Below, in pieces: positions 15,475-36,255 of a stretch of DNA of 64,000 nt. The position numbers and the translations under genes are program-made. Each line of letters begins with the position of its first letter. The stretch's first letter is position 1. This DNA is from a phage. The notes beneath the pieces are model-generated. The model was given only the letters and a program-made list of their open reading frames with translations, searched no databases and was not told the DNA's origin. The stretch lies in the NCBI GenBank assembly GCA_036253035.1, contig GCA_036253035.1_4123.1, one strand, 5' to 3'.

Positions 15475-15502
15475 ATAATATATGAATTGTATAAAAAGTC
15501 AA
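15475..15502 (-). promoter_or_regulatory. sigma70-like promoter for the LGTNYQE array (TTGACT-N16-TATTAT)
   Basis: Minus-strand -35 at 15497-15502, -10 at 15475-15480; only promoter-like site upstream of the 26-gene array. Confidence 0.5.
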
Positions 15503-15693
15503 TAACATTTTATTCGTAATACCCCTTTATCGAAGTCGCTAAGGTTACCCGCCCTTTAGCCCCCTACGCATTTTGCCATAGTCCAATCCCTTTTATTTTA
15601 AAAAAGTCAAGGGATTACCTATGCATTTTTTTAACGCATTATTTTAAAAACGCCTTGACTTTTTTCTGAATCAGTACTAGATCCCTTTACGCA

Positions 15694-15903
15694 TTAATCC
15701 TTCGTTACGCTAACGATTATCTGTGTATCCCCGTAGTCCTGCCATACTTCCACGCCATCCGTCGCCCTGGTTAGTCGTGCTGTCATCTGCTTAACAGTCT
15801 TAGGCTTTAGTGGAACCTGTTGCAGTACTGTACGCATAGCATCACTGACGTTATCATGTACGCCAGCAATAGTACCTAGAACGCTGTATACTGTATAGAA
15901 CAT
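15694..15903 (-). CDS. hypothetical protein (69 aa)
   Basis: ATG with AGGAGG RBS 8 nt upstream. Confidence 0.6.
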   Translation of the reverse strand: MFYTVYSVLGTIAGVHDNVSDAMRTVLQQVPLKPKTVKQMTARLTRATDGVEVWQDYGDTQIIVSVTKD

Positions 15904-16889: not shown

Positions 16890-17105
16890 TTATTTACAGA
16901 ACTGTAGCCCGACTGTGTTCGGATAGTACACACATCTTTCACGCTTACCGCTAAACGCAGATATCCAGGATAATTTGTATGCCACTGGTTCCGGTGCAAG
17001 AGGATTATTTGAATAATCGAGAACTTTAACAATTAAACGGTCCCCAACATACCAGCCAGTTGACTCTTTGATACGGTCGATAATTTCTTGTTTGGTTAAC
17101 GCCAT
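16890..17105 (-). CDS. hypothetical protein (71 aa)
   Basis: Start moved to ATG of MALTKQEI; track GTG start lies inside 5' hairpin. Confidence 0.5.
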   Translation of the reverse strand: MALTKQEIIDRIKESTGWYVGDRLIVKVLDYSNNPLAPEPVAYKLSWISAFSGKRERCVYYPNTVGLQFCK

Positions 17106-17322
17106 TTTATATCTCGCTCTTTTGGAGGTGGGCTGCACTATTGCCGCCCTACGAGATACATTATCTCAGTACTGATATACTTTGTCAATACTTTTTTTGA
17201 AATAGTTTTGAGTACTGGCATTACATCCACCAGCAGATAGTTACTCACCGTTATTAACTATCTTATAGATACTTCTCTGCACCCTGTGGGCTAGTTTTTG
17301 TCTATGCGTATATAATAGCAAA

Positions 17323-17352
17323 GGGACTGACCGGAGTCAATCCCTTTTTTTT
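17323..17352. terminator. intrinsic terminator hairpin (GGGACTGACCGGAGTCAATCCC + T8) with embedded minus-strand TTGACT-N17-TATTAT
   Basis: 9-bp stem with one mismatch, CGGA loop, T-run on plus side; member of 6-copy element family. Confidence 0.55.
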
Positions 17353-18776: not shown

Positions 18777-18836
18777 GGGGAGAGCTATTCTCCCCTTGAT
18801 GTAAACTATTATACAGTACTGATATACTTTGTCAAT
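18777..18836 (-). promoter_or_regulatory. early-type promoter (TTGACA-N16-TATAAT) plus 5'-proximal GC stem-loop
   Basis: -35 at 18831-18836, -10 at 18809-18814, hairpin GGGGAGAGCTATTCTCCCC at 18777-18795 about 7 nt after predicted TSS; no U tract follows. Confidence 0.6.
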
Positions 18837-19060: not shown

Positions 19061-19248
19061 CGTCTTGATTCCTTTTAGTACCAGGGAGAACCATTTCCCC
19101 CTCTCGATATAAAACATTATACGCTCATTGAGATAGTTTGCAAGTACTTTTTATAAAATAGTTTTCAGTACTGAATACTTATATAATAGATACACTTCCG
19201 CACCCTATGGGTCAGTGAGTTATCTCTCAATGAATATATAATAGCAAA

Positions 19249-19276
19249 GGGACTGACTGGAGTCAATCCCTTTTTT
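19249..19276. terminator. intrinsic terminator hairpin with embedded minus-strand promoter
   Basis: GGGACTGACTGGAGTCAATCCC + T6; same element family as 17323. Confidence 0.5.
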
Positions 19277-21332: not shown

Positions 21333-21419
21333 TTTAATTTCTCTCTTTTAGTTAGGAGGGGAACCATTCCCCTGCCTTGATGTAAACTATTATACAGTAC
21401 TAAGATACTTTGTCAATAC

Positions 21420-21695
21420 TTAAGTATTGTAAATGTCGTGAATAGTGATAAAGTTTTTACGACCGTAAACATGTAAATCAGTATCAATGTAGTGCTTATC
21501 AAGTACATCCTCGACGCTTAAAGCCGTGTCGTGAATATCTTCATAGAATTGTGGATCTACAATCTTACTTAAATCATCCGGCGTTAACTTATCATTGAGC
21601 CATTGCACCGCCTGGATATCTGCATCACGTTTCCAGTCTTCCAGGTTAGTAGTCAGTACTTGCTCGATTTCGTTAGCTGTCAGTAGAATCCGCAT
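21420..21695 (-). CDS. hypothetical protein (91 aa)
   Basis: ATG with AAGAGAG RBS; 5' hairpin GTGGGGAACTATTCCCCAC. Confidence 0.6.
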   Translation of the reverse strand: MRILLTANEIEQVLTTNLEDWKRDADIQAVQWLNDKLTPDDLSKIVDPQFYEDIHDTALSVEDVLDKHYIDTDLHVYGRKNFITIHDIYNT

Positions 21696-21985: not shown

Positions 21986-22270
21986 TTTGTATTCCTCTTT
22001 GTGGTTGATGTAAGTATTATACTCGTTTAATTTCTATTGTCAAACTATTTTATCAGGGGAGGTTTTCGTATGTCTTACTCCTGGACTACTTAACGGGGTT
22101 ACTTATTTCGTTCCCCGTCCTGATGTAAAACATTATACTTGATTCTAAGTACAATGCAAGTACTTTTTAAAAATAGTTTTCAGTACTTGATAGTACTAGC
22201 CACCAGCATATAATAGATACATTTATGCACCCTGTGGGTTAGATTGTTTCTATGCATATATAATAGCAAA

Positions 22271-22298
22271 GGGACTGACCGGAGTCAATCCCTTTTTT
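22271..22298. terminator. intrinsic terminator hairpin with embedded minus-strand promoter
   Basis: GGGACTGACCGGAGTCAATCCC + T6. Confidence 0.5.
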
Positions 22299-24556: not shown

Positions 24557-24618
24557 GATATTATATAGTTACATTTGTGCACCCTATGGGTTAGTGACGT
24601 TCTCGTCTTGATGTAAGT

Positions 24619-24647
24619 ATTATGCCAGTACTGGCATAATTTGTCAA
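24619..24647 (-). promoter_or_regulatory. sigma70-like promoter (TTGACA-N17-CATAAT)
   Basis: -35 at 24642-24647, -10 at 24619-24624; leader contains conserved dyad ACCCATAGGGTGC. Confidence 0.5.
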
Positions 24648-25366: not shown

Positions 25367-25449
25367 TTTAGTATTCCTTAGTAGTGTAGTTGATAAAAGT
25401 TATTATGCCAGTACTATCAATCATTGTCAATAGTACTGTGATAATATTT

Positions 25450-25662: not shown

Positions 25663-25755
25663 TTTGATTTCTCTCTGTTTGTGGGGAGAACTATTCTCCC
25701 CTTGATGTAACTTATTATACAGTACTATAATCTATTGTCAAACTATTTTTTAATA

Positions 25756-26097: not shown

Positions 26098-26281
26098 GAT
26101 TTGTTTCCTTATTACCAGGGGAAACCGTTTCCCCTTTCGATGTAAAACATTATACGCTTATTGAGATAGTTTGCAAGTACTTTTTAAAAATAGTTTTCAG
26201 TACTCAAACATTATATAATAGATACACTTATGCACCCTGTGGGCTAGTGAGCTATCTCTCAATGAATATATAATAGCAAAA

Positions 26282-26309
26282 TGGCTGACCGGAGTCAACC
26301 ACTTTTTTC
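26282..26309. terminator. intrinsic terminator hairpin (element family variant)
   Basis: GGCTGACCGGAGTCAACC + T6. Confidence 0.45.
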
Positions 26310-28560: not shown

Positions 28561-28641
28561 TTTAATTTCCTCTTAGTTGTCTTGATAAAATCTATTATGC
28601 CAGTACTATCAATCTATGTCAATAGTACTGTGATAATAATT

Positions 28642-28854: not shown

Positions 28855-28936
28855 TTTCTTTTTCCTCTTAGTTGTCTTGATAAAATCTATTATGCCAGTA
28901 CTATCAATCTATGTCAATAGTACTGTGATAATAATT

Positions 28937-29848: not shown

Positions 29849-29869
29849 AGCCCACTGTATAAGTGGGCT
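29849..29869 (-). terminator. rho-independent terminator (minus strand)
   Basis: AGCCCACTTATACAGTGGGCT followed on minus strand by U6; downstream of gene 29891..30373. Confidence 0.65.
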
Positions 29870-30574: not shown

Positions 30575-30595
30575 AGCCCACTGTATAAGTGGGCT
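30575..30595 (-). terminator. rho-independent terminator (minus strand)
   Basis: Identical hairpin to 29849 copy, U-run on minus strand; downstream of gene 30613..30912. Confidence 0.65.
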
Positions 30596-31024: not shown

Positions 31025-31053
31025 TTGACAACTGCATCCAGTACTGGCATAAT
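31025..31053 (+). promoter_or_regulatory. plus-strand sigma70-like promoter (TTGACA-N17-CATAAT)
   Basis: -35 at 31025-31030, -10 at 31048-31053; downstream transcript would carry dyad ACCCACAGGGTGC and end at hairpin 31134-31151. Confidence 0.5.
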
Positions 31054-31059
31054 ACTTAC

Positions 31060-31160
31060 ATAAAGACGAGATAGTCACTAACCCACAGGGTGCATAGATC
31101 CGTCTATTAAATGATTCAGTACTGCAAAATAAAGGGGATCGTTTGATCCCCTCTGTATTA
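31060..31160 (+). ncRNA. candidate small non-coding RNA (~100 nt)
   Basis: Region between plus-strand promoter and hairpin/U-rich tract; no ORF; contains family dyad motif. Confidence 0.3.
31134..31151. terminator. bidirectional terminator hairpin
   Basis: GGGGATCGTTTGATCCCC flanked by A/T-rich tracts on both sides; downstream of minus gene 31158..31379. Confidence 0.5.
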
Positions 31161-31379
31161 CTTAGTAAGATATAAACAAAAATCACCTTTCTTTGCTACG
31201 CCGCCAGTGTAACGCGATGAATAGTTAGAAACGTCTTGCACTTCTGCAATGACGAGCGTATCATCATTTATTTCGTCGCAAAAACATACTGCGGGATCTT
31301 CTACGCCAATATTGTCAGCATGTGCCCGCATAGATTTAACCAGTGCTTCAAGCTGGGAAAGAGTAGTGATATTAGCCAT
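31158..31379 (-). CDS. hypothetical protein (73 aa)
   Basis: ATG with AAGGAG RBS; hairpin; TTGCAA-N16-TATAAT. Confidence 0.6.
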   Translation of the reverse strand: MANITTLSQLEALVKSMRAHADNIGVEDPAVCFCDEINDDTLVIAEVQDVSNYSSRYTGGVAKKGDFCLYLTK

Positions 31380-31466
31380 TGTAAAACTCCTTATTAGTGG
31401 GGAGAACCATTTCTCCCCTTGATGTAAACTATTATACAGTACTGGAAACTAATTGCAAGTACTTTT

Positions 31467-32964: not shown

Positions 32965-33263
32965 TTTGTAACCCTCATTCATTAGTTGATGTAAGTATTA
33001 TACGCTTTTACTTTCTATTGTCAAACTATTTTATCAGGGGAGTTTTTCATACGTCTTACTCCTGGACTACTTAACAGGGAGTTACTTATTTCATTCCCCG
33101 TCCTGATGTAAAACATTATACGCCTTTAAACATAGTTTGCAAGTACTTTTTGAAAATAGTTTTTAGTACTTTCCTATAGATACACTCCCGCACCCTATGG
33201 GCTATCGCCTTGTGTCCGGCTTGTAAGTATTATCTCACTAAGCCGGATAACGGTCAAGTACTT

Positions 33264-34618: not shown

Positions 34619-34646
34619 TTGACTCAGCACCGAAAAAGCGTATAAT
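34619..34646 (+). promoter_or_regulatory. plus-strand sigma70-like promoter (TTGACT-N16-TATAAT)
   Basis: -35 at 34619-34624, -10 at 34641-34646; reads into non-coding hub carrying family leader motifs. Confidence 0.5.
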
Positions 34647-35086
34647 TACTACATAGACGCGAGAAAGCGGATACCCCTGGGGGGTGCGGAATTACGCCCA
34701 AAATTCATATAATTTAAAAAGGATACACTCCCGCACCTTAGCAGGTCATAGCACTTTCTCAGTACTGAATAATAGTATCATAGTACGCCCCAGGATGGCA
34801 AGCAAATTAATTAAAACTTTTTGCGTTTAGGGTATTGCTTTATTTTTTCAGTACTGCTATAATATTTTCATCAAGTCGAGAAAGACTCAAGCCCACCGGG
34901 TGCATAGTTACGCCCAAAATTCAGTACTGAAAAAAATTTTAAAAATATCCGTCCAGGCCGTTGACATTGCCCCCAGTTTATAAGATAATGATTCCAGATT
35001 CAGAAAAATCTAACTCCAGATACTGCGGGGAAACTATCCCCACGCGGTAGGGGAACTATTGGAAAAAACAAAATAAAATTTTGATT

Positions 35087-35200
35087 TAGCCGTCTATACT
35101 TCCAGACGTGTAACCATCTAGCCGTTTAGCCGTCCAAACGTCTAGCCATCCAGCCATCCAGAAATCTAGCCGTCTAGCCGTCTAGATGGATAGCCATCTT
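35087..35200. repeat. iteron-like direct repeats, ~10 copies of TAGCC(G/A)TC
   Basis: ttagccgtctat / ctagccgtttagccgtcc / tctagccatccagccatccag / ctagccgtctagccgtctagatggatagccatc. Confidence 0.6.
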
Positions 35201-36051
35201 TACTTCCAGACTTCTGGAGGGCTAGACATATCTACGTCCAAAATCCATCCAGGGTAACTACGCCCAAAATCCGTCAGTACTATACCATAGATCTATCTTG
35301 TGAAAGGAGTATTCAGTACTGCCATCATAGCCCTCACTATGTTACCCTAGGAGGATGAAGACTATCATGTAGTACTGAATACTGTTAGAGGGAATCCACC
35401 AGCACAAGCTGGTGGCATAATGCTTTAGATTAAAATCAGTACTGACACCATTCTGTTAATATCAGTACTGTTATTACGATTTTCATATGAGGTTCAAAAA
35501 GATGTACCACCACAGGAGGAACTATCTTTTCTGTACTGTCTCACGACAGGAGGTAGAGTAAATGAATTGTTGGCAGCAACTCATCTCTCTATGTAGAACA
35601 TTATACAGTACTGAATCATAATGTCAATAACTTTCTTTCATTATTCAGTACTGATATTCTTGAGAACTACCCGTCTACAAACATCATTATATCCCACAAA
35701 TCATAAACGTCCCAACGTAAATTTCAACTTTCGAAGATCCAACTTTTATTTCATAGGTACTCCAAAATTTTTAGGATCGAGATTTAGGATGGAGTACTAA
35801 CCAACTTTTTGCTGGAGCCTCAAGGGGTAATGGAATTTTACCCCGAAGGGTAAAAGGGTAATTGTAATTAAGGTGAAAGTAATAATTCAGTACTAATCAT
35901 TGCGTGATTACTTTTGATTACATTTGATGTAATTTGCAAAATGGAAAAGGAGCTTGGAAACTACAAAGTACGGCAGACTTCCTCTGCCTACTTAGTGGCA
36001 TATCAGTACTGCTACGTTCTTGATTAAACGTGAACATTCCTGTACTCTAGT

Positions 36052-36140
36052 ACTCACTACTGATCACTACTGATCACTACAGTGATTATAAATGATTACT
36101 TAAATGTTTATATATGATTACTTATGACTACCTATGATTA
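36052..36140. repeat. short tandem direct repeats (CACTACTGAT x3; ATGATTAC x3)
   Basis: ctcactactgatcactactgatcactacagtgattataaatgattacttaaatgtttatatatgattacttatgactacctatgattac. Confidence 0.55.
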
Positions 36141-36255
36141 CGGGGTTTAGCCTGGGGAGAATCCTAGTGATCGCATTTGTCCAGGCTGAATTTTAACAAT
36201 TCGCCTGTACATAAAGGTTGTTCACTAGGAGCTTCCCCTGTCTACTTGTGTTTAA

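Follow-up and report, generated by a model that had tools for sequence, protein, structure and literature searches.

A probable two-hairpin RNA module behind a distinct class of early promoters in the direct terminal repeat of RaK2/121Q-type jumbo phages

A short dyad recurs in a 64,000-nucleotide stretch of phage DNA (NCBI GenBank assembly GCA_036253035.1, contig GCA_036253035.1_4123.1; the whole stretch is called the window below), and it probably acts within a transcribed RNA module of two hairpins and not as an operator on DNA. The module constitutes a new RNA motif family, and its ties to a distinct class of early promoters and to the direct terminal repeat of jumbo phages of the RaK2/121Q type are well supported. 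Regarding its function, which is inferred, we lean toward an explanation in which the module combines a 5' stabilizer with a site for protein recognition and the RNAs count as products in their own right. With Escherichia phage 121Q, a jumbo myovirus of 348.5 kb that belongs to the genus Asteriusvirus in the RaK2-like group, the window shares about 98% identity.

Recurrence of the dyad and its linkage to promoters

The original prediction, that an imperfect inverted repeat recurs in the window, was borne out. The pattern GCACCCNNNGGGY, searched with at most one mismatch, had 8 matches against 1.07 expected, and 0 of 100 dinucleotide-preserving shuffles reached 8. Six of the matches were written on the plus strand (17279-17291, 19200-19212, 22227-22239, 24579-24591, 26232-26244, and 33190-33202) and two on the minus strand (31081-31093 and 34891-34903). 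To these 8 canonical copies, a profile search added 2 variants in non-coding DNA at 34.6-34.8 kb, ACCCCTGGGGGGTGC at 34673-34687 on the plus strand and ACCTGCTAAGGTGC at 34733-34746 on the minus strand, the latter found by the profile search only. Most of the positions first listed agree with these; the copy given as about 33160 sits at 33190-33202, and of the two copies called degenerate, the one at 34670 is the variant ACCCCTGGGGGGTGC and the one at 34890 (GCCCACCGGGTGC) is nearly canonical. Since the open reading frames (ORFs) at 14-36 kb are on the minus strand, the functional orientation is minus for six of the eight canonical copies and for 7 of 10 overall, and the dyad then reads RCCCAYAGGGTGC. 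In the sense of transcription it is RCCC-AYN-GGGU-GC, with 7 copies on the minus strand and 3 on the plus strand. The dyad is directional and no true palindrome: complementarity is limited to RCCC/GGGU, and the GC that follows is invariant and unpartnered.

The expected location downstream of a TTGAC-type promoter also held for every copy. All 10 copies in the window were preceded by a promoter of the type TTGAC[ATC]-N17-[TCG]AT[TA]AT, mostly with an extended -10 TG, and the dyad lay 20-30 nt past the -10. In each of the 10 units, as a promoter with its module is called here, the promoter matched the hexamer consensus at 9-11 of 12 positions, with A-tracts upstream. The enrichment near promoters that had been anticipated for the whole genome was found as well when the complete 121Q genome (348.5 kb, put together from seven loci) was scanned with the motif and with a covariance model. 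The motif CCCAYAGGGTGC, with at most one mismatch, had 9 matches, every one within 136.5-153.9 kb; 8 of them lay 21-28 nt after TTGAC[AT]-N17-[TC]AT[TA]AT, and the ninth followed a promoter with a weaker -35, TTGCTT. The covariance model gave 10 copies, all within the same interval, and zero in the remaining ~330 kb.

About 45 strong sigma70-like promoters were recognized at 16.8-35.7 kb of the window, and they fell into two classes. Class A promoters (TTGACA/TTGCAA-N16-TATAAT) stand directly before genes, and their leaders carry a 5' hairpin of their own (GGGGAGAA-nnn-UUCUCCCC, with variants) ahead of a Shine-Dalgarno sequence and ATG. Class B promoters, which bear the dyad, have an N17 spacer and a -10 of TATTAT, CATAAT, GATAAT, or TATACT, with an extended -10 TG in 54 of 80 units; in 4 window units, the terminator stem of the preceding gene contains the -35. 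Some 30 class A promoters at 16.8-35.7 kb are gene proximal, with examples on the minus strand at 18808-18835, 21389-21416, 25714-25741, and 31431-31458; the stems of their leader hairpin (GGGGAGAA-AUAG-UUCUCCCC) vary yet remain complementary, and the hairpin resembles the poly-G/poly-C stem-loop of PeSL (promoter-early stem-loop) cassettes. Three further TTGACA-N17-CATAAT promoters with an extended -10 TG on the minus strand (25402-25430, 28594-28622, and 28889-28917) carry no module and no class A hairpin and lead through short leaders into a Shine-Dalgarno sequence and ATG; thus, the N17/TG type is not always coupled to the module. The genome papers of the clade described only RpoD-like promoters with UP elements (PMC5259590).

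The palindrome AGTACT was abundant throughout the window, especially at 7.5-64 kb, with 237 occurrences against about 20 expected and at most 30 in any shuffle. Its sites include promoter spacers (cAGTACTG just before the -10), UP regions, the middle of convergent unit pairs, and also gene interiors, and it is absent at about 1-7.5 kb and 11.0-15.7 kb.

A probable transcribed module of two hairpins

A promoter-anchored pattern that left the loop and the 3' flank free was used to scan IMG/VR and yielded 30 stretches, all of them jumbo-phage-like except one evident chance match (L037); 25 came from genomes of 345-378 kb. From these stretches, 81 distinct units were extracted. Read from 5' to 3', the module comprises the predicted start, hairpin 1, a linker of 3-4 nt, hairpin 2 (the dyad), and a conserved 15-nt box, with a total length of about 50 nt. 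Hairpin 1 occupies the sequence between the -10 and the dyad, and its stems vary among copies with complementarity kept, as in GACG/CGUC, GCCA/UGGC, CAGA/UCUG, CGAA/UUCG, GGAG/CUCC, AGACA/UGUCU, AGCA/UGCU, and CCAC/GUGG. The loops are A-rich (GCGAAA, AGAUAA, and AGAACAA), and an identical GCGAAA loop was closed by 7 different stems. The best-stem score of hairpin 1 was 8.76 against 5.22 for shuffled sequences, with about 25 distinct stems and none of 200 shuffle sets matching it, and this test is independent and free of model-fitting bias.

A gapless seed alignment of 20 units of the same architecture (A3) reached 96.9% pairing, and each of the four hairpin-1 pairs showed changes in both partners. 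The covariance model built on it (R1) returned 120 matches in 606 kb of sequence, of which 104 were distinct. In the alignment of these 104 sequences (A4), 95.1% of cells were paired against 73.6 +/- 1.1% in shuffles (0 of 500), and pairing was 92.8% in hairpin 1, where both partners had changed at 4 of 4 pairs, and 96.9% in hairpin 2, all of these percentages being inflated because A4 was fitted to the model; when the 3' partners were slid by 1-3 columns, pairing fell to 31-53%. RNAalifold applied to a plain MAFFT alignment missed hairpin 1 because differences in loop length shift the register, a problem solved by the same-architecture seed and the covariance model, and it saw zero covariation in hairpin 2 because that stem barely varies.

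The non-canonical copies of hairpin 2 bear on whether it acts as RNA or as DNA. Among the 104 distinct sequences, the inner pair was C-G in 100 and U-A in 3, the latter arising from compensatory changes of CCC/GGG to CCU/AGG in ACCU-ACA-AGGU (two independent contexts) and ACCU-GCUA-AGGU, and the closing pair was A-U in 48, G-U in 45, and unpaired in 11. At least 10 copies had loops of 4 nt (UCAA, UAGA, UAUA, AUUA, and UUUA) with CCC/GGG kept, and one copy gained an extra C-G pair. G-U pairs filled 18 cells in hairpin 1 and 45 in hairpin 2; since each would be an A-C mismatch on the opposite strand, the sense strand is the folding strand. Tolerant of changed half-site spacing and asymmetric, hairpin 2 reads as an RNA hairpin rather than a rigid dimeric DNA site, and we read it as one that would be recognized by its bases and not by its shape alone.

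The dyad is followed by the invariant GC and then by the box, R-G-A-R-N-U-V-Y-R-U-C-U-R-U. Conservation was 1.83 bits per position in hairpin 2 (a figure inflated because the units were chosen by the core motif), 0.88 in the box, and 0.35 both in the promoter spacer and past the end of the box. About half of the copies open the box with GGAG, and AUAG, AUAA, ACAA, and AGAG are also frequent at its first four positions; a CsrA-type GGA motif was rejected, as the GGA of the box is not conserved. Two further candidates for the box were discarded. A pseudoknot of the box (UCUAU) with the 5' end or the hairpin-1 loop (AUAGA/AGAUA) can form only in some short-leader and AGAUA-loop copies, fails in GCGAAA-loop copies, was not recovered by RNAalifold, and is a point on which single-sequence folds disagree. 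A mini-ORF (Shine-Dalgarno-like GGGUG plus NUG-UAU-CUA-UAG, encoding M-Y-L-stop) would have its start codon at the needed offset in only 38 of 102 units.

Genomic contexts and predicted small RNAs

Contexts were scored for 102 distinct units. Convergent pairs accounted for 34, with rigid dyad-to-dyad gaps of 45 nt (24 units), 56 nt (4 units), and 63 nt (6 units); in 24, the next 400 nt contained neither an ORF nor a strong promoter; 14 had a strong second promoter downstream; and 30 had an ORF at most 150 nt away. Where this was checked in the window, a weaker class A promoter lay between unit and ORF, and only 3 or 4 units ran directly into the ORF. Altogether, 58 of the 102 units face another unit or a terminator-like hairpin and no gene. 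Because it is the promoter, not a gene, that the module accompanies, a role confined to gene regulation, such as the control of translation, is unlikely.

Orphan units, found in the window and in four other contigs including RaK2, share a layout of module, box, (U/C)AGUACUG (8 of 9), an A-rich stretch, and a strong G+C hairpin that begins 39-40 nt after GGGUGC across genera; some have clear U-tails, e.g., GGGAGACUCAUUGUCUCCCCUUUUUCUUU in RaK2, a trait looked for in small RNAs that depend on Hfq or ProQ. This layout predicts RNAs of about 95-105 nt. The orphan unit of the window (31025-31162, plus strand) has conserved counterparts in 51 records of Escherichia, Klebsiella, and Salmonella phages, where it mostly lacks annotation. 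ORF calls overlie the orphan unit in several relatives, and in 121Q, "gene 270" (138583-138768 in the record; 38583-38768 in L001) spans the convergent unit pair 138610+ / 138667-; this annotated hypothetical ORF is probably not a real gene.

A near-consensus Fur box, e.g., GAGAATGATAATCATTTAC against GATAATGATAATCATTATC, is centered in convergent pairs with gaps of 56 or 63 nt in related phages (L008, 2792-2871 and 8050-8136; L011, 1248-1334; L014, 305-393; L031, 3082-3168; and L036, 6060-6139), which suggests that some convergent pairs in these phages may be under iron-dependent control. In the window, no Fur box better than 4-5 mismatches was found.

Confinement to the direct terminal repeat

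Two records have mapped ends, and in both of them the direct terminal repeat, as annotated, contains the orphan unit. The repeat of vB_Ec-M-J is annotated at 1-21,525, with a non-coding first 1.76 kb, and in the first 40 kb of this genome, the model found 11 units, all at 1.08-20.1 kb and 0 past the repeat. Alignment to vB_Ec-M-J placed the genome terminus at about 35,992 of the window and the inner edge of the repeat at about 15,540; by this mapping, the repeat extends approximately over 15540-35992, and all ten window units fall within it. The 17-kb unit-bearing stretch of 121Q likewise corresponds to a direct terminal repeat of about 20 kb, and restriction digests of the relative fEgEco12 verified a repeat of about 21 kb (PMC13070987).

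Gene architecture switches at about 15,500-15,700 of the window, with small, spaced genes that have their own promoter and terminator inside the repeat and tightly overlapping genes outside it, and vB_Ec-M-J switches likewise at position 21,525. A non-coding tandem array with a period of 8 bp and about 12-20 repeat units (TAGCCGTC / CCATCTAG / CCATCCAG) lies at 35087-35242, about 0.8 kb from the mapped terminus; among the sequences compared, TRF saw it in the window only. This array is CCGTCTAG-like and resembles the box core CCGTCTAT, the likeness extending over a 6-7-mer. On these two grounds, its occurrence in the window only and the shortness of the likeness, the array was not taken as a DNA counterpart of the box. 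Repeats with a period of 10-12 bp (TGATTACNNN and TCACTACTGA) at 35905-36141 flank the position that aligns with the physical end of vB_Ec-M-J (~35,992) and may be linked to terminase cutting or end protection.

The ten units of the window

Unit 1 (17263-17340, minus strand, 38.6 bits with the covariance model) covers the site at which the dyad was first noted. Its promoter, TTGACT-N17-TATTAT with TGn, lies at 17340-17312 with the -35 in the terminator stem of the upstream gene, and the predicted start is at about 17305. A weak hairpin 1 (17304-17292, UAG-acaaaaa-CUA) is followed by hairpin 2 plus GC (17291-17279, GCCCACAGGGTGC) and the box (17278-17263), beyond which come a second promoter (start at ~17153) and an ORF at 16890-17138. 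The two highest-scoring units, both on the minus strand, are similarly built: unit 2 (19184-19266, 66.3 bits) has its promoter at 19266-19238, a predicted start at ~19231, hairpin 1 at 19229-19216 (UGAG-agauaa-CUCA), hairpin 2 plus GC at 19212-19200, the box at 19199-19184, and a class A promoter downstream (start at ~19109), and unit 5 (26216-26298, 62.9 bits) has its promoter at 26298-26270, a predicted start at ~26263, hairpin 1 at 26261-26248 (UGAG-agauag-CUCA), hairpin 2 plus GC at 26244-26232, the box at 26231-26216, and again a class A promoter downstream (start at ~26142). Two more minus-strand units stand between them. Unit 3 (22211-22288, 38.9 bits) comprises a promoter at 22288-22260, a predicted start at ~22253, a short hairpin 1 at 22252-22240, hairpin 2 plus GC at 22239-22227, and the box at 22226-22211; unit 4 (24563-24647, 36.9 bits) comprises a TTGACA-N17-CATAAT promoter with TGn at 24647-24619, a predicted start at ~24612, hairpin 1 at 24607-24596 (GACG-agaa-CGUC), hairpin 2 plus GC at 24591-24579, and the box at 24578-24563.

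Unit 6, the orphan (31025-31162, 44.1 bits), is on the plus strand, opposite to the genes. Its promoter (TTGACA-N17-CATAAT) lies at 31025-31053, the predicted start at ~31060, hairpin 1 at 31065-31076, hairpin 2 plus GC at 31081-31093, and the box at 31094-31109; the 3' part consists of UUCAGUACUG and then the G+C hairpin GGGGAUCGUUUGAUCCCC (about 31133-31150), which is common to the convergent gene at 31158-31379, and the predicted product is an RNA of about 100 nt with no ORF. Unit 7 (33174-33257, minus strand, 35 bits) has a TTGACC-N17-GATAAT promoter at 33257-33229, a predicted start at ~33222, hairpin 1 at 33220-33207 (GCC-ggacacaa-GGC), hairpin 2 plus GC at 33202-33190, and the box at 33189-33174; 121Q has a convergent unit pair at this position instead.

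The remaining three units lie near the genome terminus. The variant unit 8 (34619-34703, plus strand, 18.3 bits, E of 0.075), in the non-coding terminus, has its promoter at 34619-34646, hairpin 1 at 34658-34669 (CGC-gagaaa-GCG), and a hairpin 2 with one added pair at 34673-34687 (ACCCC-UGG-GGGGU-GC). It converges, with a 45-nt gap, on the variant unit 9 (34717-34801, minus strand), which was found with nhmmer at an E of 0.09, was missed by the covariance model at E<=0.1, and has a weak promoter at 34801-34774, hairpin 1 at 34766-34750, hairpin 2 at 34746-34733 (ACCU-GCUA-AGGU-GC, with a compensatory U-A inner pair and a 4-nt loop), and the box at 34732-34717. Unit 10 (34835-34919, plus strand, 43.7 bits) points toward the mapped genome end, with a TTGCTT-N17-TATAAT promoter (TGn) at 34835-34863, a predicted start at ~34870, hairpin 1 at 34874-34887 (AGUC-gagaaa-GACU), hairpin 2 plus GC at 34891-34903 (GCCCACCGGGTGC), and the box at 34904-34919.

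Searches for known families, hosts, and partners

No Rfam family was found at gathering thresholds across the whole window, and no tRNA was found in it. At E<=5, the 16.8-36.3 kb section gave three weak Rfam matches (two Trp_leader and one SR1), none of them on the module hairpins or the box. The Trp_leader matches fell on identical terminators, AGCCCACTTATACAGTGGGCT plus a T-run, at 29849-29869 and 30575-30595 on the minus strand, scored 27 and 26 bits against a threshold of 41, and are probably a mere resemblance between terminators. No similar sequence was present in 5,426 Escherichia coli genomes at E<=1, and the 39 pattern matches in 596 Gb of bacterial and archaeal genomes were at chance level, scattered over unrelated taxa, with only one reaching 18 bits. 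The motif strings were absent from the searchable literature. As a possible partner, the 157-amino-acid ORF that follows some units was rejected, being the N-terminus of a homologue of a 121Q "structural protein" with no Pfam domain. CRISPR repeats (I-E and I-F), N4-type DNA hairpin promoters, and the promoter context of NAD capping were considered as models and seemed too dissimilar.

Three known kinds of element were also compared and did not fit the module. An intrinsic terminator or attenuator at hairpin 2 would need a T-run, and 0 of 80 units had at least five T in the following 8 nt. A lambda-type nut site would need a boxA (CGCUCUUA / GCUCUUUA), which, as GCTCTT[TA], occurred in 0 of 80 transcribed regions and, with at most one mismatch, in 1 of 80; furthermore, hairpin 2 has a 4-bp stem and a loop of AYN (3 nt) or 4 nt, against the 5-bp stem and 5-nt GNRA-like loop of lambda boxB. 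A palindromic DNA operator does not agree with a spacing of 3 or 4 nt, one added pair, and a GC after GGGU that has no symmetric counterpart.

Proposed function and alternative explanations

In the explanation toward which we lean, strong early promoters read by host sigma70 (N17, usually with an extended -10 TG) would give transcripts that open with the module, transcription starting at the A of a conserved CAU about 7 nt past the -10. Hairpin 1, with 3-5 bp of any pairing sequence and an A-rich loop of 6-8 nt, would serve as a generic 5'-terminal stabilizing hairpin and would be joined by a YUA-type linker to hairpin 2 (R-CCC / AYN / GGG-U), the invariant GC, and the single-stranded box RGARNUVYRUCURU. 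A conserved protein, supplied by the phage or the host, would recognize hairpin 2 together with the box in a sequence-specific manner. The RNA itself may be the product, because no gene follows most copies; the units would then form a family that yields abundant small RNAs and leaders early in infection, with about 10 members per repeat and hence about 20 in a packaged genome. A more specific version, possible though rather doubtful, is that early RNAs of about 100 nt form an RNA-based arm of host takeover that captures or reprograms a conserved enterobacterial host factor or a phage partner. The host factor could be RNA polymerase, an RNA chaperone, a ribonuclease, or a defense protein, and the convergent pairs and Fur-box pairs might be regulated variants.

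Several points weigh against an RNA module of this kind, in addition to the inflation of the pairing and conservation figures stated above. Promoter activity, transcription starts, and RNA ends are consensus-based predictions, protein binding is inferred, and no candidate partner protein was identified. About a quarter of the units, a "short leader" class, have a hairpin 1 of 3 bp or none. Hairpin 2 is thermodynamically weak, with 4 bp and a consensus folding energy of -3.8 kcal/mol, and as its stem is near-invariant, direct covariation amounts to 3 double changes against 3 pair-breaking single changes. In several orphan units, the terminator U-tract is clear only on the opposite strand (e.g., window 31133-31162), which puts the proposed 3' end of the small RNA in doubt. 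In addition, about 40% of the units precede genes, mostly through a second promoter, and a cis role on mRNAs is therefore possible.

Such a cis role could consist in control of elongation, the RNA acting with a phage factor (nut-like) or without one (put-like) so that the polymerase either pauses or reads through the terminators of the repeat. Two adjacent small hairpins immediately past early promoters, copies as invariant as nutL and nutR within one phage, the many intergenic terminators of the region, four of which contain unit promoters, and the share of units upstream of genes all fit this proposal. We consider it unlikely, since the 80 units have no boxA-like sequence, the loop of 3-4 nt is not the 5-nt GNRA-like loop of boxB, no Rfam match was found, and 58 of the 102 units have nothing to read through. 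The 39-40 nt from orphan modules to a strong hairpin suggest intended termination, and units that point antisense would, if antiterminated, transcribe antisense through genes.

Quite unlikely, too, is a leader that tunes the lifetime of early messages through a 5' stabilizer and a nuclease site, cut by a RegB-like, GGAG-cutting enzyme or by RNase E. Hairpin 1 starts 2-6 nt from the predicted 5' end, where known 5' stabilizers (ompA-type hairpins) likewise sit, class A mRNAs also begin with a 5' hairpin, and GGAG opens the box in about half of the copies. However, GGAG is not conserved, and this proposal leaves unexplained both the strict invariance of hairpin 2 and the many copies without a downstream gene.

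An operator or roadblock, which the original prediction had read from the position of the dyad, would have a phage or host protein on the double-stranded dyad at about +16 to +30 repress or block early promoters in an early-to-middle switch. The 12 core bases are conserved as strongly as the promoter hexamers, as base-specific DNA recognition would explain; the hairpin-2 stem is nearly without covariation; a site just past the start suits a roadblock; and the array at 35087-35242 (CCGTCTAG-like, resembling CCGTCTAT) could hint at a DNA-binding protein for the box. The analysis did not support this part of the prediction, and we regard it as very unlikely, though some role of the invariant bases at the DNA level is conceivable. 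Half-site spacing varies between 3 and 4 nt, with one inserted pair, and complementarity is preserved; the double changes from CCC/GGG to CCU/AGG are present in 3 distinct sequences; the 45 G-U closing pairs exist in RNA only; and the motif is asymmetric, with an unpartnered invariant GC. Moreover, the distance to the -10 spans 10 bp, a spread that an RNA element or a pure roadblock could tolerate and a phased operator could not, and the dyad adjoins, at 3-4 nt, hairpin 1, whose four pairs all covary.

Finally, it is highly unlikely that the dyad is inert and owes its conservation to the spread and recombination (gene conversion and modular shuffling) of a PeSL-like mobile promoter/terminator cassette: TTGACT-type units with the -35 in a terminator stem preceded by an A-tract match the PeSL definition, the surroundings are hyperplastic and rich in small ORFs, and one replacement breakpoint between the window and 121Q falls at a unit (33170-33255), but the other five of 6 do not, CATAAT/GATAAT units keep the module without a terminator stem, hairpin-1 stems show compensatory change and not homogenization, and the flanks have diverged to about 0.35 bits with hairpin 2 invariant across several phage genera, which indicates selection on the dyad itself.

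Jumbo phages of the RaK2/121Q clade are being developed for therapy, with about 80% of their genes, and the whole of their regulatory RNA, uncharacterized. The module, present in phage records from Escherichia, Klebsiella, and Salmonella, gives a handle on early transcription in the repeat, where two promoter classes have different leaders, and bears on the use of abundant non-coding RNA during takeover. ORF calls that overlap RNA units are probably spurious, and the invariant 13-nt hairpin could be used as bait in a search for partners.

Comparison with known systems

The related jumbo phage PA5oct, which relies on host RNA polymerase, has two highly transcribed noncoding RNAs in its direct terminal repeat (PMC7318152). 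These are 236-451 nt long and defined by RNA sequencing, with no motif described, and their likeness to the module is one of location.

Among the RNA elements of lambdoid phages, the nut site resembles the module in having a small, invariant, G+C-rich hairpin in the leader RNA just past early promoters, and the lambda boxB stem, GCCCU/AGGGC, is similar to RCCC/GGGU. The module differs in lacking boxA, in having a 3-4 nt loop against a 5-nt GNRA-like one, and in its ~10 copies per repeat against two per genome, many of them with nothing to antiterminate; no N-like protein was identified for the module, and N homologues were not sought. The put RNAs of HK022 are two adjacent hairpins near early promoters that act in cis on RNA polymerase with no protein factor; they are about 65-70 nt long, with longer stems, and number two sites per genome. 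The module likewise forms two adjacent hairpins in the nascent RNA close to early promoters, but no sequence or model match to put was found, and its gene-less contexts argue against a read-through purpose. Hairpin 1, at the extreme 5' end, is akin to ompA-type stabilizers. Sponge RNAs of the CsrB/RsmZ type also present a short, invariant hairpin motif in many copies that are highly expressed, but they repeat GGA within one RNA, whereas the module has one motif per RNA, encoded by many genes.

The PeSL cassettes of T4-type phages (Arbiol et al. 2010, PMC2839356; Comeau et al. 2014, PMC4122927) are defined by a promoter and a terminator stem-loop with a role in recombination, and no transcribed two-hairpin module was described for them (PMC2839356, PMC4122927). 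The likeness consists in strong sigma70-type early promoters with A/T-rich upstream sequence, joined to a stem-loop terminator able to overlap the -35, and in their multiplicity within a hyperplastic small-ORFan region of a phage distantly related to T4. Of the window units, the four of TTGACT type, with the -35 in the terminator stem (AAAGGGATTGACTCCGGTCAGTCCCTTT), fit the PeSL definition; the CATAAT/GATAAT units lack the stem. In contrast to PeSL cassettes, the module is most conserved past the transcription start, shows covariation of the RNA kind, is restricted to the terminal repeat, and occurs also behind promoters without a terminator stem.

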